Assembly: GCA_964597885.1 (NCBI GenBank)
Contig: CAZQZX010000001.1
Location: forward strand, 9,849-73,848
Length of the DNA stretch: 64,000 bases
Source of the DNA: an uncultured Planctomycetota bacterium
GTDB lineage: Bacteria > Planctomycetota > JACOTG01 > JAUIME01
Direction: 5' to 3'
The translations under genes were made by a program, and so were the position numbers. Positions 3,892 through 63,775 of this stretch are shown piece by piece (within the stretch, counting starts at the first letter, position 1; each line of letters starts with the position of its first letter). The notes under the pieces were generated by a model. It saw only the letters and a program-made list of their open reading frames with translations. It was not told the origin of the DNA and searched no databases.

Positions 3892-5310
3892 TCAGAGCGA
3901 TTCGTGAACGGCGCGTCCGGCTTCGTCGAGGCCGAACGGCATCACGATCGTTCGAACGCCGGAAGGCTCGTCGGTCGCTTCGGCTTCGAGCTCGACCTTC
4001 GAGAGGACGATCACCGGTACGTCGATGCCTTTCTCCCGTAGGCGTCGGATGCGCTCATGAGGATGCCCGCGCTGCGCTTCGAGCATCACGAGGTCGAAGT
4101 TTCCGTCGGCCGACTCCGTCAGACGCTCGAGGAGACGATCGGGATCCTCGTGGGCGATCTCGTAACCGAGCATCGAGAGCCCGGTCGACAGGACGGCGCG
4201 GCTCTGCGAGTCCGGCGCCGCGAGAAGGATCCGCTGGCCCGCGCCGCGAGGCACCGGCTCGGCATCGTTCTCGCCTTCGGGCTCGTGAACGGGAAGCTCG
4301 ACGATGAAGGTGCTCCCGGCCCCCGGCGTCGAGTCGACCTCGATCGTGCCGCCGTGGTCCTCGACGACGCCCTTCACGACCGCGAGCCCCATCCCGGTGC
4401 CGCCGATCACCTCCTTCGTCGTCACGAACGGCTGGAAGATCGTCGGCAGGACGTCGGGGTCGATCCCGGACCCGTCATCCTCCACGGAAAGGCGTGCGCG
4501 CGGTTGCCCGTCCTTCTCGACCCGCTCGATGCGGATGCGAATCGAGCCGCCCTCCGAGCCGAGTGCGTCCTTCGCATTGAGTCCGAGATTGAGCAGCACC
4601 TGCTGGATCTGCACCCGATCCGCGAGCACCCACACCTCGCGCCCGTCGCATTCCACCGACAGTCGAACGGAGGGCGGGCTGCTGCGCTCGATGAGCCGCG
4701 CGATCGGACGCAGCGTCACCCCGAGCTCGAGCGGTCGCTTCGACGGCCGACGCTTCTCGCTGAAATCCAGGAGCGATCGCGCGACGTCGCCGGCCTGGTC
4801 GATCGCACCGCGCACCGCTTCGATCGATCGCTCCAGGCGCTCGGGATCGGCGTCGCGCTTCTCGATGAGGAGCAGGTGGTTCGAGATGACCGTCAGCAGG
4901 TTGCGGAAATCGTGGGCCACGCCCGACGCGAGCTGCCCGACCGATTCCATCTTCTGCGATTGGCGCAGCTGGTCGAGAAGGCTGTTGCGCTCGCGGCGCT
5001 CGGCGAAGAGCTGCAGCGCCATGCGCACGGCGGGCGCGAGCCTCGTGAGGTTCTCCTTGAGGATGTAGTCGTCGGCGCCCTTTTTCAGGCATCGGACGGC
5101 GGTCTCTTCGTCGAGCGAGCCCGTGACCACGAGGAAGGGGATCTCGATGCCGGTCGTGTGCAACAAGTCGAGCGCCTCCATCCCCGTGTTGAAGCGGGGG
5201 AGCGAATAGTCGCTGAGGACGATGTCCCAGTCGCTGCCGTGGAGCTCTTCGAGGAAACGTTCGGGCGTCTCGACGCGAACGGCTTCGCAGTCGAGTCCCT
5301 CGCGGTTCAT
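3892..5310 (-). CDS. Hybrid sensor histidine kinase (N-terminal REC, HisKA, HATPase_c, degenerate C-terminal REC-like domain). Canonical-start coordinates are given, but the REC N-terminus continues in frame up to 5427.
   Basis: H-box (ESVGQLASGVAHDFRNLLTVI), N-box (LLNLGLNAKDAL), and G1/G2 boxes (DDGSGIDPD, GGTGMGLAVV). The N-terminal REC has DIVLSDYSLP. The in-frame upstream sequence (IRVLIVEDCQEDAELVLRA) has no ATG, GTG or TTG. Confidence 0.75.
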   Translation of the reverse strand: MNREGLDCEAVRVETPERFLEELHGSDWDIVLSDYSLPRFNTGMEALDLLHTTGIEIPFLVVTGSLDEETAVRCLKKGADDYILKENLTRLAPAVRMALQLFAERRERNSLLDQLRQSQKMESVGQLASGVAHDFRNLLTVISNHLLLIEKRDADPERLERSIEAVRGAIDQAGDVARSLLDFSEKRRPSKRPLELGVTLRPIARLIERSSPPSVRLSVECDGREVWVLADRVQIQQVLLNLGLNAKDALGSEGGSIRIRIERVEKDGQPRARLSVEDDGSGIDPDVLPTIFQPFVTTKEVIGGTGMGLAVVKGVVEDHGGTIEVDSTPGAGSTFIVELPVHEPEGENDAEPVPRGAGQRILLAAPDSQSRAVLSTGLSMLGYEIAHEDPDRLLERLTESADGNFDLVMLEAQRGHPHERIRRLREKGIDVPVIVLSKVELEAEATDEPSGVRTIVMPFGLDEAGRAVHESL

Positions 5311-5427
5311 GGCGCGAAGGACCAGCTCGGCGTCTTCCTGGCAGTCCTCGACGATGAGGACACGAATCGGCGCTCGGTCGGAGATCTCCGGACCTCCTTG
5401 TAGAGGGGACCGTTGACGGGCGGTCGG

Positions 5428-5850
5428 TCAGGGGGCGTTCTCGTTCAGCGTCATCCAGTACAGGCCCACGCTCGTGAGGACCTGGTCGAATGCGGCGAAC
5501 TCGACGGGCTTGCAAAGGTAACTGTTGGCGCCGAGCTCGTACGCTGTGCGCAGATCGCTCGACTCCTTGGACGACGTGAGGATGACTACGGGAAGCAGCC
5601 GCGTCGATTCCTCGTTGCGGATGCGCTTCAGGACTTCGAGGCCGTTGATCTTCGGCAGCTTCAGATCGAGCAGGACGAGTCGCGGCCGGAGGGGCGCCGT
5701 GGTGTCGGCGGGGAAGAGCATCTCGAGGGCTTGCGCGCCATCGCGGGCGACCTCGATATTGCGAGCGACGTTGCTCTTACGAAAGCTCCGGAGTGCCAGG
5801 TCGACGTCGTGGACGTCGTCTTCCACAAGCAGGATTTCCACCTGACTCAT
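5428..5850 (-). CDS. Single-domain CheY-like response regulator
   Basis: MSQVEILLVEDDVHDVDLALRSF...LVLLDLKLPKINGLEVLKRIR...YLCKPVEF. It is a complete REC domain with no output domain. Confidence 0.8.
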   Translation of the reverse strand: MSQVEILLVEDDVHDVDLALRSFRKSNVARNIEVARDGAQALEMLFPADTTAPLRPRLVLLDLKLPKINGLEVLKRIRNEESTRLLPVVILTSSKESSDLRTAYELGANSYLCKPVEFAAFDQVLTSVGLYWMTLNENAP

Positions 5851-6124
5851 GCTCGCGCTCGCGATGCTTGCCCACGCTCCCGCGCGAGCGAACCGTGCTA
5901 CCAGGCCCCGTCGGGCCCGCGATCTTTCTCGAGGCTAACCCCGAGAGAAGAAAAGAGCGACTCGAGAATTGGGACTGCTGCCGGGCATTTGGAGGGTGAC
6001 CCAATATCTCGAGCCGCAGTGATGAAGCTTTGTTCGGGTGCCGCGTCGAGTGATGCCCGGGAGGTCGGTGAACCTCGCCGCTCGACATGGCAGATTATCG
6101 AATCCTTCGCTGTAGCACGGTATT

Positions 6125-6145
6125 AGGGATAATACTGATATCCCT
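6125..6145. promoter_or_regulatory. AT-rich hairpin (AGGGATA-N7-TATCCCT) inside an unusually low-GC intergenic island
   Basis: A 7-bp perfect inverted repeat sits in the 550-nt intergenic region between endoQ-like (-) and the response-regulator/kinase operon (-). Local GC is far below the window average. Confidence 0.3.
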
Positions 6146-6397
6146 TTCGCCGGTCACGAGCGGACTTTGCCGTTTCTTCGCGACCCGCGTGTGGATTTCT
6201 GTTATTCGCTTGTGACCAATAGGTTAGACGTTCGGTTGCGACAAGCGCGATCTCGACCGTCTGACGGGAATGGTCACCCGCTGTCCGACAAAATGTCGTC
6301 CACTGGGAAAGATCCTAGCGGAACAGATCGAGCTGAGCAACATCCGAGTTGCGACCTCGGGAACGAGCGACCTTGCGGCGAAGGAGCTCGGCCTCGA

Positions 6398-7777
6398 TCA
6401 CGGAGAGGAACACGTCTCGTCCGCGGGGGAACTCTCCATCGGGGCCTCGGCGCGGGATGAGGACGCCTCGTCGATCGTCTTCGGCTCCCCGGGAAGCTCC
6501 ACCAGCACGCCGACCCGACTGTCCTTGGTGAGCTCGCCCTCGTCGAAGACGCGGATCACGCCGTACTCGCCGTCGTAGCCGGAATCGCGTCGCACGCGAC
6601 CCGCGCGCAGCCGATCGATGGCTTCGGCGACGAGCTCCGAGCCGCGATGCTCCAGCTCGTCGCGGGGCATCGTCTCGAGGATGTCGAGCTCGGAGCCGAG
6701 CCGCGCCACGAGCTTCTCGTAGGTGCGTCCGACCGTCTTGCTCTTCGGGCCGACGCCGTGGATCTCGCTCAGGATCTCGGGCAGCGGGACCAGGCTCCGG
6801 TAGGGCGCGGCCGTTTCCGGTGAAGCCGGCTCGTCGCGATCCGCGAGCTGGTCCACACGGTTCATCACGCCGACCGTGATCGGCTTCCCGCAGGCCGGGC
6901 ACGCGCCGCCGTGACGCCGCGTCTCGTCCGGGTCGAGTCGCATGCCGCACTTGCGATGCCCGTCGAGGTGGTACTTCCCTTCCTCGGGGAAGAACTCGAC
7001 GGTGCCTTCGTAGCCGACGCCCGTCTCGAGAGAGCGCCGCACGGCCATGTAGTCGAGGTCGCAGTCGAAGACGCTCGCTTCGCGGCCGATCTTGCCGGGC
7101 GAGTGCGCGTCGGAATTCGACACGAGTCGATACCGATCGAGGAACGACACGCGCCAGTTCATCGGCGGGTCCGAGGACAGTCCCGTCTCGACCGCGAAGA
7201 TGTGCGGCGTGAGATCGTCGTAGCACTCCTCGATCGAATCGAAGCCGGACTTCGAGCCGAGCGTCGAGAACCACGGCGTCCAGATGTGCGCCGGGATGAG
7301 GTAACAATCCTCGCCACACTCGAGCGTGATCTCGAGGAGGTCGCGCGAATCGAGTCCGAGGATCGGTCGCCCGTCGGACTTCAGGTTGCCGATGCGCGAG
7401 AGCTTCTCGATCAGCCGATCGGCTTCGTCGAGCCCCGGCACGTAGATCAGGTGATGGTTCTTTCGGGTCTTCTCGCCCTTCTTGTAGATGGTCGAGATCT
7501 CGACCTGCAGGAGAAAGCGAATCGGGCCGACGCACGACGGCGGGAGCCACGAATCGACCTCACGCTGGAGATCATCCCGCAGCCGGAACAGCCCGGGCTC
7601 GGCGGGGACGAGCTTCTCGCGGATCTCCTGGATCCACGCGGGGTGCGTGAAGTCACCGGTGCCGAGAAGCGAGACGCCCTTCTTGCGGGCCCAGTACGCG
7701 TTGTGCTCGAGGTCGAGATCCCGGCTGGTCGCGCGCGAGTACCTGGAGTGGATGTGCAGATCCGCGTAGAAACGCAT
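6398..7777 (-). CDS. PHP-domain protein, endonuclease Q-like (TIGR00375-type)
   Basis: The N-terminal MRFYADLHIHSRYSRATS is a PHP metal-binding motif. It has a conserved His/Asp pattern and a Cys cluster (CGMRLDPDETRRHGGACPACGK) like the EndoQ zinc finger. Confidence 0.55.
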   Translation of the reverse strand: MRFYADLHIHSRYSRATSRDLDLEHNAYWARKKGVSLLGTGDFTHPAWIQEIREKLVPAEPGLFRLRDDLQREVDSWLPPSCVGPIRFLLQVEISTIYKKGEKTRKNHHLIYVPGLDEADRLIEKLSRIGNLKSDGRPILGLDSRDLLEITLECGEDCYLIPAHIWTPWFSTLGSKSGFDSIEECYDDLTPHIFAVETGLSSDPPMNWRVSFLDRYRLVSNSDAHSPGKIGREASVFDCDLDYMAVRRSLETGVGYEGTVEFFPEEGKYHLDGHRKCGMRLDPDETRRHGGACPACGKPITVGVMNRVDQLADRDEPASPETAAPYRSLVPLPEILSEIHGVGPKSKTVGRTYEKLVARLGSELDILETMPRDELEHRGSELVAEAIDRLRAGRVRRDSGYDGEYGVIRVFDEGELTKDSRVGVLVELPGEPKTIDEASSSRAEAPMESSPADETCSSP

Positions 7778-7813
7778 CGCGCGATTCCCCTCCCGTCTTC
7801 GTGCTGTCGTGCG

Positions 7814-8596
7814 CTAGCGCTGCCAGATCGCCTTCGTGGCGGCCAGTCGCAGGCCGGCGCGCGCGAGGTTGCGGTGCGCCGGATCTCCGAACTGCGACCA
7901 CGCGACGACCAGCTTGCAGCCCGCCTCCTGAGCGCGGACGAGCCGGTGGTGAAGCACGGCCGTGTGGCCTCCCTGACGGCGCAGCACGTGGGTCGATGCG
8001 GCATCGGCAAGCGACGCTGTCTCGCCGTCGACGTGCAGCCACCCCGCGGCGACCGCCGTTCCGTACAGGCGTCCGAGACACAGCTCGATGCCCTCGATGC
8101 TCCGCCAGTGCGCGAGATCGTCCGTGGACTGGTGGTCGCCGGCCGGGATGTCCCAACCCTGCTGGTACACCTCGATGAACTCGCGGAACGCCCAGTCGGC
8201 TTCCACGGCCGTCACCTCGACTCCCGGGTTCGGCTGCAGGGCCGACGGATCGGGGACGCCGTAGTGGAGCGCGGTGAATCCGGTGTGGCGGAATCCGTGC
8301 TCGGCAAGCGTGGAGGCCGTGGCGGCATCGAGCGATCCGGGCAGGATCTCGACGCGCGCGGACGCGGCGCTGTCCCCGAGCGAATCGAGCGCGGGGGCGA
8401 GGTCGCCGGCGGTCTTCGGCGAGAGGCCGAGGACGCGCGGTTCGCCCGTCGCGGGATCTTCGGGTCCGTGAATGACCGTGAGGTCGCCGTGCTCGGTCAC
8501 CGCGTCGGCGCCCAGCCGAGCGCGATGGAACGCGGCGTCGGCAGCTTCGATGCGGGCGAGCAGTCTCGTATCCAGATCGGGTAGCGAAGTCGTCAT
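7814..8596 (-). CDS. GNAT-family N-acetyltransferase-like protein
   Basis: The C-terminal segment is a motif-A-like HVLRRQGGHTAVLHHRLVRAQEAGCKLVVAW. The amino-acid composition is consistent with a real gene. Confidence 0.45.
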   Translation of the reverse strand: MTTSLPDLDTRLLARIEAADAAFHRARLGADAVTEHGDLTVIHGPEDPATGEPRVLGLSPKTAGDLAPALDSLGDSAASARVEILPGSLDAATASTLAEHGFRHTGFTALHYGVPDPSALQPNPGVEVTAVEADWAFREFIEVYQQGWDIPAGDHQSTDDLAHWRSIEGIELCLGRLYGTAVAAGWLHVDGETASLADAASTHVLRRQGGHTAVLHHRLVRAQEAGCKLVVAWSQFGDPAHRNLARAGLRLAATKAIWQR

Positions 8597-40820: not shown

Positions 40821-40919
40821 CGCTAGCCGCTGGTGGACGCCGCGCCGCGACGATAGAATCCCCTCGGGCTGCGGCCCCTGGAGAATGAGCGGGTACGAAG
40901 CGGATCGGAGTCCGAGGGC

Positions 40920-43067
40920 ATGAGTCGCATCGTGGTCCTGGGCGCCCTGCTGCTGCTGGTCGCCGGGCTTGGGAATTTGTGGAACGCACCGGGCGCTCTC
41001 GCCGTCTCGACCGAGGAGTCGAGCGCGTCGCAAGGTGCGCGAGTCGGAGTGGACGTCGAGCGCGTCTACCCCCGGCTGCGCTTTCAGCGGCCCGTCTTTC
41101 TGACGCACGCGGGGGACGGGAGCGGACGCGTCTTCGTCGTCGAGCAGCACGGCGTCGTGCACGTCGTCCCGGATGCGGAAGATCCCGTCGCGGGCTCCGT
41201 GTTCCTCGATATCTCGGATCGCGTCAGCCGGATCGGAAACGAAGAGGGCCTGATCGGGCTCGCGTTCCATCCGAGATTCGAGGAGAACGGAACGTTCTTC
41301 GTGCACTACTCGTCCTCGGCGAAGGACCGCACGGGAGTGGTCTCGAGATTCCGCGTCGCGAAGGACGATCCGAACCGCGCCGACCCGAAATCCGAAGAGG
41401 TGATCCTCGAGCAGCCTCAACCCTACCGCAACCACAACGGTGGGATGATCGAGTTCGGCCCCGACGGATTCCTTTACATCGCCTTCGGCGACGGCGGGTC
41501 GGCCAACGATCCGAACAACAACGCGCAGAACCTGACGAACTGGCTGGGCACGATCCTGCGTATCGACGTGGATCGCAAGGAAGCCGGCCGGGCGTACGCA
41601 GTGCCGGAGGACAACCCCTTCGTCGGGCGTGAGGACGCGCGTCCGGAGATCTGGGCCTACGGTCTTCGCAACGTGTGGCGATTCTGCTTCGACCCGGAGA
41701 ACGGCGATCTCATCGCGGCCGACGTCGGGCAGGATCGGTTCGAGGAGATCGACCTCATCGAGAAGGGCGGGAATCACGGCTGGCGCGCCTACGAGGGCGA
41801 CCACCGGTTCTTCCGTCGCACGCGGATTCCACCCGAGGAGCACGTGATTCCGATCGCCGAGTACGGCCGCTCGGACGGCATCTCCGTGACGGGCGGGTTC
41901 ATCTACCGCGGATCGCGTCATCCTGCGCTCGCCGGGCGATACTTCTACGGCGATTACGTGTCCGGGAATCTGTGGAGCCTCGAGCGCGATGCGAAGGGCG
42001 AATGGAAGTCGACGCTCGAGCGACGTACCGGCAAGAGCATCGCGTCCTTCGGCATGGACGAGGACGGCGAGATCTATCTGCTGAGCTTCGACGGAGGCGT
42101 GTATCGAATCACGGCGTCGAACGAGCCGGTGGCGGATCCGCTCGCGGGCTGGCCCGAGAAGCTCTCCGAGACGCGGCTCTTCGCCTCGGTCGAAGGCCAC
42201 GTACCGGCCGGGGATCTGATCCCCTACGAAGTGAATGTCGGCTTCTGGTCGGACCGCGCGCAGAAGAAGCGCTACATCCATCTGCCCCGTGGCGGGAAGA
42301 TCGGCTTCCGTGCCGAGGGGCCGTGGGAGCTGCCGGTCGGCGCGACGATCGTGAAGACTTTCATCGGGAACGATTTCGGGCGCGAACGGATCCTCGAGAC
42401 GCGCTTGATCAAGCGAACGGCCGAAGGATGGGAAGCCGCCTCGTACATGTGGGATCGCGATCAGAAGGAAGCGCGGCTGGTTCCGGAAGGATCCCAGTTC
42501 GAGCTGATTCATCGCGGTGGCGTCGACACGTGGCATGTCCCGTCGGTATCCGAGTGCGCCGCGTGTCACACCGACTCGGCGGGCTTCGTGCTCGGCCTGA
42601 CGACGGCGCAGCTCAACCGACCGGGTGCGGAAGGCGGAACCAACCAGCTCGTCGAGTGGTCGGCGCGACGCCTGCTCGATCCCCCGGTCCCCGACGCCTC
42701 GAAGCTTCCGCGGCTGGCGAGTGCGAAGGACGAGAGTCGACCGATCGGGGCGCGTGCGCGCGCGTGGCTCGACGTGAACTGCGCGATGTGCCATCGCCCC
42801 GACGGCCCCGGCAACGCGGCGATCGACCTGCGATACGAGACGTCGATCGCCGACACGGGGACGCTCGACGTGCCGCCCGCCCAGGGCGATCTCGGTCTGC
42901 CGAACGCTCGCATCGTGGCGCCGGGCGCGCCGGGACGATCGGTGCTGGTCGAGAGGGTGCGCACGCTCGGCGCCGGTCGCATGCCGAATCTCGCCTCCAA
43001 CCTGGTCGACAGCGAAGGCGTGGAACTGCTCGAGCGATGGATCGCGACCCTGAAGCGGGACCGATGA
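40920..43067 (+). CDS. PQQ-dependent sugar dehydrogenase (GSDH beta-propeller) fused to a C-terminal di-heme cytochrome c domain
   Basis: Signal peptide. GSDH blocks LAFHPRFEENGTFFVHYS, NHNGGMIEFGPDGFLYIAFGDGG and GLRNVWRFCFDPENGDL. Two CxxCH motifs (CAACH, CAMCH) in the C-terminal roughly 200 aa. Confidence 0.75.
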   Translation: MSRIVVLGALLLLVAGLGNLWNAPGALAVSTEESSASQGARVGVDVERVYPRLRFQRPVFLTHAGDGSGRVFVVEQHGVVHVVPDAEDPVAGSVFLDISDRVSRIGNEEGLIGLAFHPRFEENGTFFVHYSSSAKDRTGVVSRFRVAKDDPNRADPKSEEVILEQPQPYRNHNGGMIEFGPDGFLYIAFGDGGSANDPNNNAQNLTNWLGTILRIDVDRKEAGRAYAVPEDNPFVGREDARPEIWAYGLRNVWRFCFDPENGDLIAADVGQDRFEEIDLIEKGGNHGWRAYEGDHRFFRRTRIPPEEHVIPIAEYGRSDGISVTGGFIYRGSRHPALAGRYFYGDYVSGNLWSLERDAKGEWKSTLERRTGKSIASFGMDEDGEIYLLSFDGGVYRITASNEPVADPLAGWPEKLSETRLFASVEGHVPAGDLIPYEVNVGFWSDRAQKKRYIHLPRGGKIGFRAEGPWELPVGATIVKTFIGNDFGRERILETRLIKRTAEGWEAASYMWDRDQKEARLVPEGSQFELIHRGGVDTWHVPSVSECAACHTDSAGFVLGLTTAQLNRPGAEGGTNQLVEWSARRLLDPPVPDASKLPRLASAKDESRPIGARARAWLDVNCAMCHRPDGPGNAAIDLRYETSIADTGTLDVPPAQGDLGLPNARIVAPGAPGRSVLVERVRTLGAGRMPNLASNLVDSEGVELLERWIATLKRDR

Positions 43068-47897: not shown

Positions 47898-48962
47898 ATG
47901 GGAAGTGCCATGAAGAAGACGGCTCTCGGATTGATGGGCGCGCTGCTCCTCGTCGCCACCGCGATGGCGATCGCGGCGAAGTCGTCGAGCGTGGACACGG
48001 TGGTCGACCGAGCGGAGTCCGCCGGCGCGGCGGACGGCCAGGTGCCGGCCCCCCTGCTCCTCGACGAGTCGCCGTACGAGCTTGCCGGCAAGCTGGCCAT
48101 CGGTGAGGCCGTTCCCGAGAACCATCCCGAAGTCGAAAACGTGTTCCAGCTGAGCCCCAACATCGCCTCCGGCAGCGAGCCGCTCGGACGAGCCGGCCTC
48201 GAGCGAGTCGCGGCGATGGGCGTGAAGACGATCCTCTCGGTCGACGGGAAGACCCCGGACGCCGAGACCGCCGCCGAGCTCGGCATGCGCTACGTCCACA
48301 TCCCAATCCAGTACAAGACCATCACCGACGAACAGATCGAGCGCATGGCGAAGACGTTCCGCGAGCTCGACGGCCCGTTCTTCGTCCACTGCTTCCACGG
48401 TCGGCACCGTGGACCGGCGGCCGCCGCGATCGGACGCATCGTCGTCGATGGCGCCCCGCGAGAGCAGGCGATGGCCGAGATGCGGCAGTGGTGCGGAACC
48501 GCGCCGAACTACGAAGGTCTGTACGACACGGTGGCGTTCGCGCGGATTCCGAGCGCGAGCGAGTCGACCGCGCTCGAGTGGGACTTCCCGGCAGCGCATC
48601 CCTTCGAGGGCTTCCGTCACTCGATGGTGGAGATGGCCCGCGTTTCCGATCGCATCAAGGCATTCCAGCGCCGAGGATGGGCGATCGATCCGGAGCACCC
48701 GGACGTCGACCCGGTCAACGAGGCGGCGATCCTTCTCGGCCACTTCGTCGAATCGGGCAAGCTCGACTACGTGAAGGAGCAGCCGGAAGACTTCCAGAAG
48801 CGGTTCGCGCTCTCGCTCGAGGACGTCGAGCTGCTGCACGAGAAGCTCCAGTCGTGGAAGGCGGACGGCGGCGCCGGCGTGGCCGACCACTCGGAGCTCG
48901 ACGAGACCTTCACGCGGATCTGGCGTTCCTGCAAGGAATGCCACCAGGCCTACCGCAACTGA
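47898..48962 (+). CDS. Secreted protein-tyrosine/dual-specificity phosphatase-fold protein (CX5R P-loop) with a C-terminal helical domain
   Basis: ATG at 47898, 5 nt after AAGGAAGGA. Signal peptide MGSAMKKTALGLMGALLLVATAMA. The active site HCFHGRHRG has the C-x5-R spacing. Confidence 0.6.
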   Translation: MGSAMKKTALGLMGALLLVATAMAIAAKSSSVDTVVDRAESAGAADGQVPAPLLLDESPYELAGKLAIGEAVPENHPEVENVFQLSPNIASGSEPLGRAGLERVAAMGVKTILSVDGKTPDAETAAELGMRYVHIPIQYKTITDEQIERMAKTFRELDGPFFVHCFHGRHRGPAAAAIGRIVVDGAPREQAMAEMRQWCGTAPNYEGLYDTVAFARIPSASESTALEWDFPAAHPFEGFRHSMVEMARVSDRIKAFQRRGWAIDPEHPDVDPVNEAAILLGHFVESGKLDYVKEQPEDFQKRFALSLEDVELLHEKLQSWKADGGAGVADHSELDETFTRIWRSCKECHQAYRN

Positions 48963-57050: not shown

Positions 57051-59258
57051 CTATCCGTCCTTCGGATCGGTGATGTCGAGGACGATCGCGTTGGTGACGC
57101 TGAGGGGAGCGTCCGCCGCCGAGCCGAGATCCTGGATGAAGCCCTGGACGGTGAGCACGACGGGGAAGGGCGCGCCGCCGGGCACGTGGATCGGCATCGA
57201 AGGCGCCGGCCCTGAATCGAAGTCGGGCTCGCCGAGGTTCTTGCGGAAGCCGAGGTTGTTCCAGACCTTCGTCGGCTGGTTCTGCGGGTTCGCGATCAGC
57301 GGGGTCGGAAGCGCCGTCCAGCCGAGACCGCGTGGATAGGGCGTCACGGTCGCGGGGTCCGGGGCCGAGCGCCACACGTAGAGCACGTAGCGCGCCGAGG
57401 CCGGGCCGGCGGGTGGAGCATCGACGTGGATCGAGAACGGCTCGCGCGTGTCGAGGCGGACCACGCGCTCGTGATCGGGGACGCGACCCTCCACGCGGAC
57501 GACATCGGCCAGGTCGGGCGAGGCGTCGTTCACCGTACCGTAGAGTGCGGCGATCTCGATCCGCATCTCGTCGGCGCCGATGTCGACGCGGGCGGTGCCG
57601 TCGCCATCACCCTCGATGCGACGATCATCGCCGTCGATGTCGAAATCGTTGAGCATCGCGCTGTCGTCACCGGCATCGATGCACGGGGAGTCGATGCGCA
57701 GGTGCAGATCGTGGCGGCCGGGCGCGACGAATCGCGGATCGGCTTCGAGGTTTCCGACTCCCGGCCAGTCTCCCTCGACAACGCTCATCGAGACCGTGGC
57801 CGATCCGCCGTGCATGTCGATCTGCGGATCCTGGACACACTCGTTGCCCCAGAAGATCGAGTTCACGACGGTGACGATGGAAGTATCCGCGAAGAGCCCA
57901 CCGCCGGACGTCGTCTCCGGCTCGGGCGCGCGAGCATGGTTGTACGCGATGGTGTTGTTCGCGAGCGTCGCTTCCGTTTGACCGACGTAGACCCCGCCGC
58001 CGTGGCCGCGCCGCGCGTCGTTGAAGGCGATGACGTTTCCGGCAAGGGTGAGGATCGAGTCGAGACAGTGGAGGCCGGCGCCGCTTCCCTGGGCGAGGTT
58101 GTTCTGGATCCGGTTGGCGATGACCTTCACGTCGCACTCGTCGCCTACGAGGATTCCCGCGCCGACGCGAGCTTCGTTGTCTCGGATGAGATTGCCCTGG
58201 ATGCGGGCGCTGCTGCGTTCGTCGCAGGCGATCCCACCGCCGAAGGCGAGGATCTGAACGTGTTCGACGATCTCGTTGTCGAGGAGCTCCGCGTTCGATC
58301 GGCGGCAGTAGATACCGCATCCCGAGAGCGCCGAGTTGCGTTGCAGGAAGTTGCCCTGGATGAGGGAATCGGTGTCGCCGACGAGCGCGATGCCGCCACC
58401 CGTGCCGCTGTTGCGGTTGTTCACGATGGCATTGCCGACGGCAACCAGCGTCGCGCCGTCACCGCAGTAGATGCCGGCTCCGGTTTGCGCGCCGTTGAGC
58501 TCGACGAGGTTCTCTTCGGCCCAGCAGATGGCGTTCGACGTGACGCCGACGCCCCCGCCGATCGCGCTGGCGGGCCCAGCGTGGTTGCTGCGGATGACGT
58601 TCTCGACGAGAAGCGCCGAGGAGCTCGCCGTGATCGCGACCGCTCCGCCGATCGCGCTCGCCTGGTTGTCTTCGAACGTGTTGCGTCGAATCTCGGGCGA
58701 GGAGCCGTCGCAGTACAGGGCGCCCCCCATCGTGGGCATCTGGACGCCGTGCAGGCTTCCGTTCTCTTGGAATCGATTCGAGAGAATGCGCGGGCTCGCG
58801 CCGCGGATGCAGGCGATGCCTCCACCGAATGTCGCGGTGTTGTCGCGGATGACGTTGTCGCGAAGAGTCGGGGAGGCGCCGTCGCACAGAACCGCGCCGC
58901 CGTAGACGGTGTTCACCACGACGGTGCCGGAACCGGCGGTCAGCGTGAAGCCTTCGAGAACGGCTTCCGAGTCTTCGCCGCTCTGGAACACGACGACGCT
59001 TCCGGCGCGACCGGCATCGATGATCGTGGATGCAGGGCCGTGCGAGCTCAGGACGTGGATGGCCTTGCCGAGGAAGTCAATCGATTCGGCGAAGCGGCCG
59101 GGGTTGACCAGGATGATGTCGCCGTCACGGGAGGCCTGAATCGCGGCCTGGATCGTGGCATGGTCGCCGGGAACCGAAAGCGTACCGGCTGCTGCCGTCG
59201 TCGCGAAAGCTGCGACGGTGAGCAGGAGCATGAGTACGAGAACGTTCCGGGCCGACAT
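57051..59258 (-). CDS. Secreted right-handed parallel beta-helix protein (pectate-lyase-like fold) carrying the shared C-terminal domain
   Basis: ATG at 59258 with an AAGGAGA RBS. Signal peptide MSARNVLVLMLLLTVAAFATTAAAG. There are many NxxxxN/IxxNxI beta-helix rungs. The C-terminal roughly 110 aa align with 62549..63775 and 1081..2214. Confidence 0.65.
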   Translation of the reverse strand: MSARNVLVLMLLLTVAAFATTAAAGTLSVPGDHATIQAAIQASRDGDIILVNPGRFAESIDFLGKAIHVLSSHGPASTIIDAGRAGSVVVFQSGEDSEAVLEGFTLTAGSGTVVVNTVYGGAVLCDGASPTLRDNVIRDNTATFGGGIACIRGASPRILSNRFQENGSLHGVQMPTMGGALYCDGSSPEIRRNTFEDNQASAIGGAVAITASSSALLVENVIRSNHAGPASAIGGGVGVTSNAICWAEENLVELNGAQTGAGIYCGDGATLVAVGNAIVNNRNSGTGGGIALVGDTDSLIQGNFLQRNSALSGCGIYCRRSNAELLDNEIVEHVQILAFGGGIACDERSSARIQGNLIRDNEARVGAGILVGDECDVKVIANRIQNNLAQGSGAGLHCLDSILTLAGNVIAFNDARRGHGGGVYVGQTEATLANNTIAYNHARAPEPETTSGGGLFADTSIVTVVNSIFWGNECVQDPQIDMHGGSATVSMSVVEGDWPGVGNLEADPRFVAPGRHDLHLRIDSPCIDAGDDSAMLNDFDIDGDDRRIEGDGDGTARVDIGADEMRIEIAALYGTVNDASPDLADVVRVEGRVPDHERVVRLDTREPFSIHVDAPPAGPASARYVLYVWRSAPDPATVTPYPRGLGWTALPTPLIANPQNQPTKVWNNLGFRKNLGEPDFDSGPAPSMPIHVPGGAPFPVVLTVQGFIQDLGSAADAPLSVTNAIVLDITDPKDG

Positions 59259-59449: not shown

Positions 59450-59941
59450 CTAGTCGAGCACCGTGTCCCAGTTCGAGGGAGGACGGTATCCGCGGTAGGC
59501 GAGGTGCCGATCGGGCGTCAGGACGACGAGGGCGGGGATGCCGGCGAGGTACAGGTTGTTGACCAGCGCGAGGTCCGAATCCCGGAGCAGGGGAACGTCG
59601 AGCTTCCAGTCGGAGGCGGCCTTGCGAATTCGGTCCGCGGAGATGGCATTCGACGGGCCCGGGGTGATGCCGAGGATTCGGACGCGATCGCGGAACGGTT
59701 CGACCGAGGTGCGAAGGTCGCCGGCGAGCGCTTCGCTGGTGGGGCTCGACGGGCTGAAGAAGAACAGCGCGATCGTCTCGCCCTGATCGAGGTGGCGCGC
59801 TCCGAGGTCGTATTCCTGATCGTCGAGATCCTGAACGGCGAGCGAGAACGGGAGGCGCGCCGGATCGTCGCCGCTCCCGGGCGTCGAGCAGGAGACCGCG
59901 AGGAGGACGCACACCATCAAGAGGACCGGAGTCCTCGCCAT
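59450..59941 (-). CDS. Thioredoxin-fold (TlpA/redoxin-like) lipoprotein with the CxxC motif replaced by SxxS
   Basis: ATG at 59941 gives MARTPVLLMVCVLLAVSC, a lipobox. The thioredoxin-like layout has SPSSPTS (ALFFFSPSSPTS) where TlpA proteins have WCGPC. Confidence 0.45.
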   Translation of the reverse strand: MARTPVLLMVCVLLAVSCSTPGSGDDPARLPFSLAVQDLDDQEYDLGARHLDQGETIALFFFSPSSPTSEALAGDLRTSVEPFRDRVRILGITPGPSNAISADRIRKAASDWKLDVPLLRDSDLALVNNLYLAGIPALVVLTPDRHLAYRGYRPPSNWDTVLD

Positions 59942-60040
59942 CGATCGCCAGTCGTTCGTCAGGATCATCGTTGTTCCCTCGGGCCCGCTTGAAGGCGACA
60001 GCGTACTAGCTGCGCCGGCCGGCGGCGAGCAGGGCCGATC

Positions 60041-61915
60041 CTAGAACGTCGCGATCCAGCGCACCCCGATCAGGTCGACGCTGTCCAGATCGTCGGGCAT
60101 GGTCCAGTGCTCGTGGTTCAGGACGAGCGAGCTGCCGAACGGAAGCGCGAATCGAAAGCCCCACGTAACGCGCCGGACCCCGAAGCTCGGGTCGGTCAGC
60201 GAGCTGCCGGCGGGGACGATGTCGCCGTCGTTTCGGATCGCGTCCCAGCGGGCGATCAGGGAGATGCCGGGATCTTCGATGAGCAGGAGATCTCCCTCGA
60301 TGGAGTATCCCTCGACATCCGTGTTGCCTCGGGGATTCCCGTCCGCGAAGGTGAACTGATCGTTGGAGCGCTTCGCCCACTCGGCCTGGACGCGCACACG
60401 GTTCCGATATCGCGCCGTGAGATCGACGCCGATGATGTCGTAGTTGAGGCGCTTCTCGAACTCGTCGTCGTCCATGCGTCCGGAGATGAGCGAGGCGCCG
60501 GCGCGCAGATAGGGCGTCCCGAAGGTGACGCGGCCTCCGACGGAGGGATCCGAGTTGTTGTCGTTGTAGTCGCGGCTCTCGAAGAAGTTGACGTCGGTCA
60601 CGCCCTGGAGGCCGTTGACCACGTACGCATCGAACGTCGCGTTGACGTCCGCCACGAGCGGCAGCGCGAACGTGGCGAGGACACCCTCGTCCGAGTACGG
60701 CATCGGGATGACCGCCGGTCCGATGTCGTCGCGGTTGACGCCCTGTCCCATGTTGTAGATCAGCGGCATCGTCACCGTGCGGGAGGCCGCCGGATGGGCC
60801 TGCGCGCCGAGGCCGCCGAACGGCACGAGGAAACGGCCTGCGTCGACGGCGGCCTGCGGGCCGTCTTCGTTGAGATCGAGGGCGCGGTCGATATCGAATC
60901 GGAAGGCCCCTTCGACCAGCTCCAGCCGATCGCCCTCGGGCTCGTTCGAGCGGTGGCACGTGTAGCACGCGGTGATCCGAGCCGTGAAGGGGCCGGTGGC
61001 GTGCCATTCGGCGCCGATCCAGAGCTCGGTTTGAAAGCCGTCGTTCTGAACGGCGTCATCGCGTGCGCTCTGGCGGAAGGTCGTCCCGAAGGTCGCGCTC
61101 ACGTCGAGGTTGTCGATGAACGAGCGGAGCTCCGACTTGATGTCTTCGCCGAGTCCGAGGTCCCCCTCCTTGCGATCCAGCGATGTCAGGTACACCGCGA
61201 TCGGTTCGAGCTCGCGTGACGGGATGTGGGCGCCGGACTTGGAAGCCATGCGTCGGACCGTCGTTCGCCACCCGGCAAGATCCTTCGTCTTGTCGAGGGA
61301 CCTCGCGGCGTCGTGGCACTGCAGGCAGTAGTCGTTGAAGGCTCCCTCGCCGCGATCGATGAGATCGGGATCGAGCTCCTCGAGCTCCGCGATGTCGGGG
61401 AGGTCGTCGAGCGCCTCGGCGTCGTCCGAGTCCGCGTGCTCTCGGTCGGCGCGACGGAGCGAGTCGGCGGGTGCCGGGGCGCCGGCGCGGATCCAGGCGA
61501 GGACCGTGGCCGACTCGGCCGCGTTCAGCAGCCGAGACATGCCGTCGCGTACGGCCCGCGCGTCGGGCATCTCGCCGTCGCGGATGACGAGGTAGAGCTC
61601 CGATTGCTCCGGCGTCTCGAGATCCACGAAGTCACTGTCCCGCAGGCGATCGAAATCGAGGATGAAGTTCAGCTCGCCGCGGTAGCGCACACCGGCGAAC
61701 GCGTTCGACTCCTTGGTGTGGCAGGCCGCGCAGTGATCGAGGAACAGCGTGTGTACGGCGGCAGCCAGGCGGGACGTCGACGTCGTATCGCCGTCGCGCT
61801 GATCTTGGTCGGTGTTCGAGGCCTCTGCGCTTGTGAGGAGAAGTCCGAAGAGCCACAGGCCGACCAGGATCGACCGCACGGCCACGCCGGAACGCGGAGG
61901 CCTCGCGCCGATCAT
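60041..61915 (-). CDS. Tri-heme c-type cytochrome fused to a C-terminal beta-barrel-like (outer-membrane-type) domain
   Basis: Signal peptide, then three CxxCH motifs (CAACH, CLQCH, CYTCH) in the N-terminal half. The C-terminal roughly 300 aa have alternating hydrophobic beta-strand periodicity and a terminal aromatic residue (IGVRWIATF). Confidence 0.6.
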   Translation of the reverse strand: MIGARPPRSGVAVRSILVGLWLFGLLLTSAEASNTDQDQRDGDTTSTSRLAAAVHTLFLDHCAACHTKESNAFAGVRYRGELNFILDFDRLRDSDFVDLETPEQSELYLVIRDGEMPDARAVRDGMSRLLNAAESATVLAWIRAGAPAPADSLRRADREHADSDDAEALDDLPDIAELEELDPDLIDRGEGAFNDYCLQCHDAARSLDKTKDLAGWRTTVRRMASKSGAHIPSRELEPIAVYLTSLDRKEGDLGLGEDIKSELRSFIDNLDVSATFGTTFRQSARDDAVQNDGFQTELWIGAEWHATGPFTARITACYTCHRSNEPEGDRLELVEGAFRFDIDRALDLNEDGPQAAVDAGRFLVPFGGLGAQAHPAASRTVTMPLIYNMGQGVNRDDIGPAVIPMPYSDEGVLATFALPLVADVNATFDAYVVNGLQGVTDVNFFESRDYNDNNSDPSVGGRVTFGTPYLRAGASLISGRMDDDEFEKRLNYDIIGVDLTARYRNRVRVQAEWAKRSNDQFTFADGNPRGNTDVEGYSIEGDLLLIEDPGISLIARWDAIRNDGDIVPAGSSLTDPSFGVRRVTWGFRFALPFGSSLVLNHEHWTMPDDLDSVDLIGVRWIATF

Positions 61916-62448
61916 CGTTCTTCCTCCTCTTCGACCATGTCGCGGTACTTCAGGTGTCCCGCTCTCTCGAGCTCGCGCATCCGGTCGAAGTGCTTCTGCG
62001 CGGATTCGGTATCGCCTTCGAGGACGGCCATCTCGAGGTCGAGCAGCGCGCGGATCGTCTCGATCAGAACCTTGCGGTAGCCGACGAGGAAGGCCGGACG
62101 CTCCGCCTCGGGGACGACCTCGAGCGCCGACGGGCTGTAACGCTTCGACACGACGAGCGCTTCCTGGATCGTGGTGATGAGCGCGAGGTTGGCTTCCTTC
62201 TTCGAGTCATCCGCGATCTGACGTCGCAGCCTTCGCACGGCGCGGTTGACGCGCACCATCGAGTCCATCAACACGTCGGGCTCGACTTCGCTTTCGGTCA
62301 CCTCTTCTTGCGCCGGGGCGCTCGTGCGCGGCGAGCTCGCGACGACGGGCTCGAGCGCCGCCCAGCCGACCAGTGCGATCAGGCTCAGCATCACGAGCGC
62401 GGTCCAGGGGGCGGAAAGGAGGGCGAAGGTCTTCGTTCGGGGGTTCAT
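61912..62448 (-). CDS. Cytochrome b562-family four-helix-bundle protein
   Basis: The stop overlaps the downstream cytochrome c start (ATGA). The C-terminus AGHLKYR resembles the E. coli cytochrome b562 His-ligand region (HQKYR). The N-terminal signal-like helix has Met candidates (VLMDSMVRV). Confidence 0.5.
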   Translation of the reverse strand: MNPRTKTFALLSAPWTALVMLSLIALVGWAALEPVVASSPRTSAPAQEEVTESEVEPDVLMDSMVRVNRAVRRLRRQIADDSKKEANLALITTIQEALVVSKRYSPSALEVVPEAERPAFLVGYRKVLIETIRALLDLEMAVLEGDTESAQKHFDRMRELERAGHLKYRDMVEEEEER

Positions 62449-62548: not shown

Positions 62549-63775
62549 TCACTGCACGCGCAGGATGATGGCGTTCGTCACGCTTGCGGGCCCGTCGGCC
62601 GCCGAGCCGTCGTCGAGAAGGATCGCCTGCAGCGTCGCGGTGACTGCGTTCGGCGCTCCGGCGGGAGCGTTCAGCACCACGGAAGGCGCCGGAGTCGACG
62701 GGAAGTCGGGGTTACCGAGCTGCTGCTGGCGGCCGATGTTGTTCCAGATCTTGAACGGCTGCGGGTTGCCGCCGGTCGGCGGGATCGGGAAGCAGAACAG
62801 CCCGAGGTTTCGCGGAAGCGTCACGACCGGCGTCTGCGGGACGGGCTCTCCGATGTGCAGGTACATCACGAACGGTCCGGGGCTCGGCCCTCCGGGCGAG
62901 GCCTGCATCGAGACCGAGATCGGCGCTCCCGTCGCGAGGTTGACCACGCCGTTGCCGTTCCCGGTCGACCCGTTCAGGGTCAGGACGTCCACCGCGTTGC
63001 CGTTGCCGGCGTTGACCCGGCTGCGCCGGCACGCGAGGAAGTCCTCCTCGCGGGTGAATTCGATGGTGAGCGTCGGTCGGTTGGCCGGCGTTCCCGATTC
63101 GCGGCTATCGAGTCGCTTGGCGGTACGCTGCTGGGACTCGTCGGTGACGAGGATCCAGCCGGCGTTCACGTTCGGGTTGTCGACCCACCGCTGGACATCC
63201 GAGATGAGGGCCGCGGTCGAGCTCACCGTGTACGAGCCCGGTCCCGAGATGGCGACGGTACCGGAGGCTTCCGAAACGAAGTCGCCGCCGGCCGCGTTCC
63301 ACGTCGTGTCGGAGAAGAACCGGTGGATCCACGTGGCGTCGTTCGTGCGCGAAGAGGCTCCGGCCCCCTCGCCGCGACCCGCATTGGACGTGCCCTCGCC
63401 CCAGCTCCCGAGTACGCGATGCACGCCGACGGTGCGGGAGGAGCCGTTCGCGACGTTGTTGCAGTTCACCGACAGGGTCACCGAGTCGATGCGGGCGCGG
63501 TCGGGCAGCGAGGTCACGTCGAAGAAGAGCAGCGCGCGGCGCTTGTTGCCGCTCGACTGCCCGGTGGTGCCCACGAAGACGTGGTTGCCCGCGCCGTTGC
63601 TCAGGTTTCCACTCGTGTCCTCGTACAGCGTGTTGTCCCGGGACGCGATGATCGTGGCCGTATCGGCTGCGGCGTTCGCCTGGAACAGAAGCGTCCCGAG
63701 GACACCCAAGGCGAGCAAGGTCAGGGGCAAGTGGGACCGGATCGAACGATCGGAACGAAGGTTGGAACGCACCAT
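62549..63775 (-). CDS. Secreted DNRLRE-like domain protein carrying the shared C-terminal domain
   Basis: Signal peptide MVRSNLRSDRSIRSHLPLTLLALGVLGTLLFQANAAA. The N-terminal region has a DNRLRE-like ASRDNTLYED motif. The C-terminal roughly 110 aa (FVMYLHIGEP...LPRNLGLFCFP...IWNNIG...SVTNAIILRVQ) are shared with 57051..59258 and 1081..2214. Confidence 0.6.
   Translation of the reverse strand: MVRSNLRSDRSIRSHLPLTLLALGVLGTLLFQANAAADTATIIASRDNTLYEDTSGNLSNGAGNHVFVGTTGQSSGNKRRALLFFDVTSLPDRARIDSVTLSVNCNNVANGSSRTVGVHRVLGSWGEGTSNAGRGEGAGASSRTNDATWIHRFFSDTTWNAAGGDFVSEASGTVAISGPGSYTVSSTAALISDVQRWVDNPNVNAGWILVTDESQQRTAKRLDSRESGTPANRPTLTIEFTREEDFLACRRSRVNAGNGNAVDVLTLNGSTGNGNGVVNLATGAPISVSMQASPGGPSPGPFVMYLHIGEPVPQTPVVTLPRNLGLFCFPIPPTGGNPQPFKIWNNIGRQQQLGNPDFPSTPAPSVVLNAPAGAPNAVTATLQAILLDDGSAADGPASVTNAIILRVQ

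Follow-up and report, generated by a model that had tools for sequence, protein, structure and literature searches.

Introduction

Can the haems and the β-barrel of an outer-membrane electron conduit be combined in a single polypeptide? This question is raised by an open reading frame (ORF) located at positions 60041..61915 on the minus strand of a 64,000-nucleotide stretch of DNA from an uncultured Planctomycetota bacterium (contig CAZQZX010000001.1). The whole stretch that we analyzed is hereafter called the window. Outer-membrane electron conduits serve as marker genes for inferring iron oxidation, metal reduction, and electroactivity from genomes. The initial annotation of the window had proposed that the ORF product carries a cytochrome and a barrel on one polypeptide, which would make it a candidate porin-cytochrome. 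Structure prediction, a fold search, and the finding of homologues with the same fusion uphold this proposal. According to the predicted model, the 624-amino-acid (aa) protein consists of two small monohaem c-type cytochrome domains fused to a 16-stranded barrel that has its own CxxCH motif. We consider that it probably forms a minimal conduit for electrons across the outer membrane.

Overall layout of the protein

The ORF encodes 624 aa plus a stop codon. Its ATG start codon shares bases with the stop codon of the preceding gene (ATGA) and is located about 9 nucleotides (nt) downstream of a GAGGAGG sequence; therefore, the start site is well supported. The ORF and the upstream gene (61912..62448) are probably co-translated. 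The protein contains six Cys residues, all of which are located within three CxxCH motifs (CAACH at residues 62–66, CLQCH at 197–201, and CYTCH at 317–321). When the sequence was shuffled with its composition kept, at least one CxxCH appeared in only 13 of 20,000 shuffles. The features of the protein are listed below, with the evidence for each in parentheses.

60041..61915, minus strand: whole ORF, comprising a signal peptide, haem-1 domain, acidic linker, haem-2 domain, and a putatively haem-bearing 16-strand barrel (sequence, AlphaFold2, Foldseek)
61820..61915, minus strand: Sec-type signal peptide, residues 1–32 (read from the sequence; AlphaFold2 helix at 12–27)
61478..61783, minus strand: haem-1 domain, residues 45–146 (conservation, profile matches)
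61718..61732, minus strand: CxxCH motif 1, C62-A-A-C65-H66 (sequence)
61358..61477, minus strand: acidic linker, residues 147–186 (composition, AlphaFold2)
61148..61357, minus strand: haem-2 domain, residues 187–256 (Pfam Cytochrome_CBB3, conservation, split-gene counterparts)
60044..61108, minus strand: predicted 16-stranded outer-membrane β-barrel, residues 270–624, ending in Phe624 (AlphaFold2, Foldseek, strand amphipathicity)
60953..60967, minus strand: CxxCH motif 3, C317-Y-T-C320-H321, at the end of strand 3 and the start of loop L2 (conservation, strand pattern)
60695..60826, minus strand: long loop L3, residues 364–407, between strands 5 and 6 (conservation)
60749-60751, minus strand: Met389 in L3, proposed distal haem ligand (invariance)

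The signal peptide has a basic n-region followed by the hydrophobic segment ILVGLWLFGLLLT and then AEA ahead of SN, as read from the sequence. The linker between haems 1 and 2 contains 15 Asp/Glu residues against 3 Lys/Arg residues, in agreement with the acidic character assigned to it earlier. The predicted local distance difference test (pLDDT) score of the AlphaFold2 model falls below 50 at linker residues 155–169 and 171–175, and the linker is probably disordered. All three CxxCH motifs of the initial annotation are present, but they do not all lie within the first 300 residues because the third starts at residue 317 in the barrel. Instead of a trihaem cytochrome followed by a barrel, the protein comprises two monohaem modules and a barrel that bears the third motif, which defines the family.

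The barrel and the motif in its wall

The AlphaFold2 model was built with a 44-sequence alignment and has a mean pLDDT of 78.5 overall. Residues 270–624 form 16 strands, mostly with pLDDT values of 88–97. The best matches of a Foldseek search against the PDB were 16-stranded porins, namely, VhChiP (5mdq, E value 6.4e-12), OmpT, OmpC/OmpF, Omp32, and OprP/OprO, and their target-normalized template modeling (TM) scores were about 0.55–0.68. The C-terminal region is thus predicted as a barrel and not as a soluble domain. The faces of the strands alternate between hydrophobic and polar, with mean Kyte-Doolittle values of +1.23 and −0.83. As in classical porins, short turns (3–12 residues) connect the strands at the end where both termini are located, while the loops at the opposite end are long and include the 44-residue L3. 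The protein ends with GVRWIATF, which confirms the terminal Phe noted previously. The amphipathic nature of the C-terminal region was also recognized correctly at that time, but its length was underestimated (about 300 instead of about 355 residues).

No Pfam or NCBIfam model matched the barrel above its threshold, and its relatives showed only sub-threshold matches to Porin_O_P, BBP2, and Porin_4. A PDB sequence search with the whole protein yielded chance-level matches only.

Motif 3 starts in the last residues of strand 3 (310–318), where Cys317 shares the polar face with Arg313 and Thr315. Judging from the alternation pattern of the strand faces, the side chain of Cys317 would face the lumen. 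The end of strand 3 is expected to be extracellular because both termini are periplasmic; haem 3 would then be located on the extracellular side, in the outer half of the lumen. L3 occupies the position of the constriction loop of general porins, and conservation within the barrel is highest there (PFG, PL.Y.MG, and P.P..D.G). Cys317, Cys320, His321, and Met389 are 100% conserved in 56 aligned sequences, which include barrel-only forms. We propose Met389 as the distal ligand of haem 3 because it belongs to L3 and is the sole invariant Met or His residue outside the CxxCH motif in these sequences.

Distribution of the barrel family

A search of 5.8 billion proteins returned 69 homologues. Those with a taxon name are from metagenome-assembled genomes (MAGs) of Planctomycetota, and all 69 are annotated as hypothetical proteins or generic cytochromes c. 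A profile search of 1.84 billion cluster representatives (50% identity) identified 569 proteins at E values of 1e-10 or lower, a number that includes fragments and matches to the cytochrome domains only. Literature searches found no description of the barrel family.

Exactly one CxxCH motif is present at a constant barrel position in every one of the 131 complete-barrel members, and the last residue is Phe in 123 of them. The cytochrome domains ahead of the barrel are more variable in number; there are none in 18 members, one in 84, two in 27 (as in the window protein), three in 1, and four in 1. At least one N-terminal cytochrome domain is therefore found in 113 of the 131 members. The fusion had been regarded as unusual, but it is widespread in this family and has precedents in Cyc2 and Cyt572, which are discussed below. 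In species-representative genomes, Pirellulales, Planctomycetaceae, Gemmataceae, Sedimentisphaerales, and Pontiella (Kiritimatiellota) have the fused form, and Anaeromyxobacter and one Candidatus Eisenbacteria MAG have the barrel-only form.

The two soluble cytochrome domains

The haem-2 domain belongs to the class-I-type monohaem cytochromes c and contains C197-L-Q-C200-H201, Trp216, and Met223, the last of these in a VRRM motif. Pfam PF13442 (Cytochrome_CBB3) matches residues 186–243 with 29.2 bits, which is above the cut-off of 27, and the domain has the features of a class I cytochrome c. Its CxxCH motif is nearly invariant and Met223 is invariant among the 44 homologues. Met223 is the putative distal ligand of haem 2.

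The haem-1 domain is limited to the closest relatives (8 of the 44 aligned sequences). Its motifs (CAACH ... SELY ... EMP ... WIRAGAP) suggest a small helical c-type cytochrome that resembles PSCyt1, and Cys62, Cys65, His66, Met116, and Pro117 are kept in all eight sequences that have the domain. Pfam Cytochrom_C matches the domain with an E value of 1.8e-4. The PSCyt1 model (PF07635) reaches 22.7 bits on the whole protein at a cut-off of 22, with its best stretch at haem 3, and the isolated haem-1 domain has no PSCyt1 match. A profile of 42 PSCyt1-like proteins encoded in the split operons described in the next section matches the haem-1 domain with 24 bits (E value 1.4e-6 within the window), and its matches among the fused proteins are precisely the eight with a haem-1 domain, the window protein being one of them. 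The relationship was detected in this direction only; an eight-sequence hidden Markov model (HMM) of the haem-1 domain detected none of the split-operon PSCyt1-like proteins.

Split relatives of the fused protein

A metagenome scan found 517 stretches coding for barrel-only relatives, and 80 loci were kept. In 62 of these 80 loci, an ORF matching the haem-2 profile is present on the same strand beside the barrel gene, mostly 0–3 nt downstream of it or upstream with a 4-nt overlap. A few of these ORFs are located about 1.5 kb from the barrel gene, and some apparent overlaps are due to over-extended ORF starts. The loci without a match are mostly short contigs. The individually checked neighbors match the haem-2 profile with E values of 1e-7 to 2e-3 at Z = 1e6, and the CxxCH, Trp, and RM motifs of the haem-2 domain align with those of the split cytochromes. 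In 33 loci, the genes beside the barrel include one for a PSCyt1-like protein of about 150 aa; the Pfam PSCyt1 model passes its cut-off for one such neighbor (the protein upstream of the barrel in L093, E value 9e-8).

The commonest order in the split operons is PSCyt1-like protein, small cytochrome c, and barrel, which is the same as the domain order of the window protein. Therefore, the window ORF corresponds to a recurring multi-gene module with all of its genes fused into one. This correspondence provides strong genomic support for a joint function of the three haem-bearing parts. Several of the split partners start with lipoprotein-type signals, as inspected by eye, and the fusion to the barrel may replace lipid anchoring beside it.

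Some barrel-only genes are accompanied by large multihaem cytochromes. In L085, from an Anaeromyxobacter MAG, the gene for a 380-aa barrel overlaps the end of a gene for a 952-aa protein (4991-7849) that has ten CxxCH motifs and matches Pfam PF22113 (MtrC/MtrF domains II/IV) with an E value of 1.6e-35. The barrel gene is followed by a gene for a monohaem cytochrome of about 107 aa. In L095–L101, the barrel gene is preceded by a gene for an MtrC-like cytochrome (10 or 11 CxxCH motifs) that ends within it or just ahead of it, and contig-truncated fragments of such a protein are present in L098 and L106. The clustering of a barrel gene with an extracellular multihaem cytochrome, a trait of Mtr/Pcc systems, is thus seen at these loci; it is not seen in the window or at the planctomycetal loci.

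Two further observations concern the proteins encoded in the split operons. The MtrC/OmcA-like cytochromes upstream of the barrel-only genes (L085, L095–L101, L098, and L106) end in a domain of about 105 aa. The same domain stands alone in a protein of 150–195 aa upstream of the barrel in L109–L111, L115, L118, L120, and L132, and a 533-aa protein in L117 has it at its C-terminus. The L085 copy of the domain has CxxxxCH (CASAACH) in place of CxxCH. In addition, a conserved protein of about 317–400 aa with a lipoprotein-like start and without a Pfam match is encoded in L094 (4094-5047) and in 22 other metagenome loci (e.g., L129, L163, and L166). The 317-aa protein heads a split operon, in which it is followed by the PSCyt1-like protein, the small cytochrome c, and the barrel. 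It has no counterpart in the window or at the planctomycetal loci.

Neighboring genes

Three genes flank the ORF in the window.

61912..62448, minus strand: b562-like protein, 178 aa, upstream and coupled by the ATGA overlap (sub-threshold Pfam match, alignment, model)
62549..63775, minus strand: secreted DNRLRE-domain (CBM96-related) protein, 408 aa, upstream (NCBIfam NF033679, E value 1.9e-19)
59450..59968, minus strand: thioredoxin-fold lipoprotein, 172 aa, directly downstream (Pfam Thioredoxin_8, 24 bits against a cut-off of 27)

The 178-aa protein has an N-terminal hydrophobic helix and then a cytochrome b562-like four-helix region. Pfam Cytochrom_B562 (PF07361) matches it over the full profile length with an E value of 1.8e-5 and 25.8 bits, which is below the cut-off of 30. 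The protein aligns end-to-end with Escherichia coli b562, and the Met7 and His102 ligands are matched. A single-sequence AlphaFold2 model has a signal or transmembrane helix and four main helices, at low confidence (pLDDT 56). The b562-like protein is a plausible periplasmic partner of the cytochrome-barrel protein in the window genome.

The 172-aa lipoprotein is probably redox-inactive because it reads SPSSPTS in place of WCxxC at the expected site. It is uncertain whether it is a part of the cytochrome-barrel system.

In 21 of about 83 non-redundant loci (the window, L011, L012, L015, L026, L027, L031, L038, L044, L047, L060, L069, L073–L080, and L082), a gene for a DNRLRE-domain protein is found at a distance of at most 3 kb from the cytochrome-barrel gene. 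The proportion is 13 of 46 when only loci with a flank of at least 2.5 kb on both sides are counted. These secreted neighbors have the DNRLRE domain at the N-terminus, are often divergently transcribed, and range from 250 to 1667 aa. By eye, they may bear DUF11-like repeats and dockerin-like or PEP-CTERM ends. No haem motif or recognizable redox cofactor motif was found in them.

The DNRLRE protein of the window shares a C-terminal domain of about 215 aa (62549-63190, minus strand) with a NosD-like β-helix protein encoded downstream of the cytochrome-barrel gene (domain at 57051-57700, minus strand). The two copies are 36% identical and have no Pfam match. The domain is also present in an FG-GAP protein (L004, 12211-13497) encoded 2.4 kb from a homologue. 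It may be a sorting or anchoring domain.

The neighborhoods of three close fused homologues have no conserved operon, and a promoter and terminator scan of the 56.8–64 kb region was uninformative. In nine planctomycetal loci (L036, L042, L044, L027, L032, and L034 among them), a protein of 400–530 aa is encoded 25–170 nt downstream of the cytochrome-barrel gene; by eye, it resembles the planctomycete-specific outer-membrane barrel proteins (BBP7-like). The region upstream of the homologue in L001 (9000-9950) has no b562-like gene and contains tRNA-gene-like reverse-frame translations and a fragment resembling region 4 of an extracytoplasmic function (ECF) sigma factor. Elsewhere in the window, a glucose/sorbosone dehydrogenase (GSDH; 40857-43067, plus strand) also matches the PSCyt1-like profile (E value 2.8e-11) and is a dehydrogenase-cytochrome fusion. 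A DSP-type phosphatase-like protein (47898-48962, plus strand) matches cytochrome c' weakly in its C-terminal part (E value 4e-4, below the cut-off).

Proposed mechanism and alternative explanations

We propose that the window protein is a single-polypeptide minimal porin-cytochrome conduit, and we assign this reading a probability of roughly 0.6. The protein would be exported by Sec, and three haems would be covalently attached in the periplasm. The C-terminal 355 residues would be inserted by the β-barrel assembly machinery (BAM) as a 16-stranded outer-membrane barrel. Haem 3 would be bound where strand 3 ends on the outer side, by Cys317, Cys320, and His321, would point into the lumen, and would probably be capped by Met389 of the in-folded L3. 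The domains with haem 1 (CAACH and Met116) and haem 2 (CLQCH and Met223) would hang from the periplasmic end of strand 1. The three haems could then form a short relay between periplasmic carriers and a redox partner or a dissolved substrate at the outer pore mouth. In the window genome, the periplasmic carrier may be the co-translated b562-like protein. The domain layout, the barrel fold, the conserved haem motifs, and the linkage of the three modules in split and fused forms are results of the analysis, and from these we infer haem attachment, His/Met ligation, and the passage of electrons across the membrane. Putative His/Met ligation at all three sites fits fairly high redox potentials, which would suit electron uptake as in Cyc2. 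The MtrC-like partner in the Anaeromyxobacter-type loci suggests electron export to minerals. An autotransporter-like topology, in which the haem-1 domain would be exported through the barrel, was also considered. It is unsupported, and the lipoprotein signals of the split homologues fit a periplasm-facing anchor.

Several observations weigh against a conduit. If haem 3 is near the outer rim, it could be too far from the periplasmic haem for single-step tunneling. The b562-like and thioredoxin-like neighbors are specific to the window genome among 87 related loci, as is the β-helix neighbor except for its C-terminal domain shared with L004. The fused planctomycetal loci have no respiratory or metal-related partners, and an electron conduit leaves the association with DNRLRE proteins unexplained. 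No curated family (Pfam or NCBIfam) covers the barrel family. The family spans aerobic and fermentative lineages; therefore, a single physiological role is not obvious.

The protein could have another function. It could be a surface redox enzyme or helper that is not respiratory and that reduces Fe(III) or another oxidized nutrient for uptake, detoxifies peroxide or superoxide at the cell surface, or supplies electrons to DNRLRE-type surface proteins. The mostly stand-alone fused genes of Planctomycetota, without a nearby cytochrome or oxidase operon, would fit such a role, as would the DNRLRE/CBM96-like surface protein that recurs as a neighbor. An Fe/Mn superoxide dismutase and a CCP_MauG protein are encoded nearby at one locus, and the hosts include polysaccharide-degrading heterotrophs and fermenters. 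However, no catalytic signature was found, and the invariance of Met389 is more in line with a six-coordinate haem for electron transfer than with an open catalytic site. The DNRLRE proteins lack a recognizable redox cofactor motif, and the split relatives with MtrC-like decahaem cytochromes point to electron transfer with minerals or mediators. We therefore regard an enzymatic or helper role as unlikely. Another explanation is that an ordinary diffusion porin has been fused to periplasmic cytochromes. The CxxCH motif of the barrel would then form a structural disulfide or bind a metal, and electrons would not cross the membrane. Haem attachment is itself inferred, and the barrel matches general porins in structure and, weakly, the Porin_O_P, BBP2, and Porin_4 models. 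Nevertheless, a nutrient pore would not explain why CxxCH, including its His, is invariant in 131 of 131 members, why an invariant Met occurs in a loop that folds into the lumen, or why c-type cytochromes accompany the barrel, as fused domains or as paired genes, in almost every case. A plain porin is thus very improbable.

Cyc2 and Cyt572 oxidize Fe(II) in Acidithiobacillus, Zetaproteobacteria, Gallionellaceae, and Leptospirillum. If the window protein were a divergent member of Cyc2, Fe2+ would enter the pore and be oxidized at the haem, and the electrons would pass to periplasmic cytochromes. The layout is alike in its 16-stranded porin-like barrel, one associated c-type haem, and terminal aromatic residue (PMC8406198), and OprP and OprO, which were the templates used for Cyc2, are among the Foldseek matches. 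An hhalign comparison with four Cyc2-type sequences was collinear and started at the CxxCH of both (25% probability), and the P-F-T-A-R-I-T stretch before haem 3 faintly recalls PxFAR[QK][TY]. However, Cyc2 is defined by a single CxxCH right after the signal peptide and N-terminal to the porin, with AxPxFAR[Q/K][T/Y] just upstream and PxL just downstream, in a 16-stranded porin protein of at least about 365 aa in total (Keffer et al. 2021, PMC8406198). The window protein has the 16 strands and OprP/OprO among its fold matches, but it contains three CxxCH motifs, and the one that defines its family follows three barrel strands. The flanking motifs of Cyc2 are absent at all three sites; motif 3 is preceded by GPFTARITA and followed by RSNEPEG.

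For comparison, Cyc2-type reference proteins were retrieved by tblastn searches against plasmids with a motif peptide and were checked by the published motif and the HiPIP-cyc2-cyc1 context. The references, which are from replicons of Ralstonia, Caballeronia, Methylocystis, and Ideonella, have ...PAFARQTG..CxxCH..PEL... right after the signal peptide, with the CxxCH at about residue 40. The Caballeronia gene is located between a HiPIP gene and a c-type cytochrome gene. A relaxed motif, PxF[AN]R[QK][TY], is present in 96 of 120 further Cyc2-type homologues. The HMM of the window family scores below 0 bits on Cyc2-type proteins. With a Cyc2-type profile of 124 sequences, the hhalign probability was 16%; only the C-terminal barrel halves were aligned, the haem motif was outside the alignment, and the match was no better than generic porin-to-porin similarity. 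Because the motifs are absent, the HMM scores are below 0 bits, and the hhalign probabilities are only 25% and 16%, the window protein is, judged by its sequence, not a member of Cyc2, although it may work like Cyc2. We consider true Cyc2 membership improbable.

To our knowledge, only Mtr/Pcc-type complexes and Cyc2 are searched for today when electron conduits are surveyed in genomes. The present barrel family is missed by current surveys because it has no Pfam or NCBIfam model, despite the 569 matches and more than 500 barrel-only metagenome matches. If the proposed conduit does conduct electrons, it would be the smallest conduit design known, with three haems and 16 strands. It would provide a cell-surface redox function for Planctomycetota, which are not normally considered electroactive, and the fused forms would imply unrecognized extracellular redox chemistry in many Planctomycetota and in Pontiella of Kiritimatiellota. 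The split forms would serve MtrC-like cytochromes in metal reducers of the Anaeromyxobacter type, and this would explain how some MtrC-like cytochromes of Myxococcota are wired without an MtrAB pair. Since both fused and split forms exist, the proposal is directly testable by heterologous expression.

Comparison with known systems

In MtrCAB, MtoAB, PioAB, and the Pcc complex of Geobacter (OmaB-OmbB-OmcB), a haem-free barrel of 20–26 strands surrounds a separate cytochrome with 8–12 haems. In contrast, the barrel of the window protein has 16 strands and its own CxxCH motif, and its periplasmic modules are monohaem domains with a conserved Met; it therefore differs from the Mtr/Pcc barrels. Its fold matches that of the general porins. 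As in OmpF, OmpC, VhChiP, and OprP, there are 16 strands, the periplasmic turns are short, the long L3 folds inward, and the last residue is Phe. This assignment to the porin fold is based on structure only, with the Pfam porin models below threshold on the window family, and the general porins have neither a cofactor nor fused periplasmic domains.

The initial annotation stated that the known conduits place the cytochrome and the barrel on separate polypeptides. This does not hold, as Cyc2 and Cyt572 each combine a monohaem cytochrome with a porin barrel, predicted to have 16 strands, in one protein (PMC8406198, PMC10654088), and GM18_3465 from Geobacter sp. M18 has been predicted to be an outer-membrane decahaem cytochrome of a porin-like type (Shi et al. 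2014, PMC4245776). Compared by its description, GM18_3465 is similar to the window protein in being a single polypeptide with predicted trans-outer-membrane strands and CxxCH within the barrel region. It differs in that its long loops contain ten motifs and its strands are predicted to number about 21, and its topology is from an HMM prediction only.

Cyc2 and Cyt572 are among the known systems closest to the window protein. They share a c-type haem and a 16-stranded porin-like barrel on one polypeptide, an OprP/OprO-like barrel, and a proposed exchange of electrons between the outside and periplasmic cytochromes. However, the CxxCH of Cyc2 is located in a small N-terminal plug domain, while that of the window family follows strand 3 and is predicted to face the lumen. 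Moreover, further cytochrome domains, one or two in number and two in the window protein, are fused to the barrel on its periplasmic side. The porin-cytochrome fusion itself is already known, and the proposed attachment of a haem to the barrel wall is what is new. We tentatively suggest, at somewhat less than even odds, that the family represents a third class of trans-outer-membrane conduit, which evolved independently and would be added to Mtr/Pcc and Cyc2, and in which the barrel wall would hold a covalent haem and one or two monohaem cytochromes, whether fused, lipid-anchored, or free, would complete a two- or three-haem wire.

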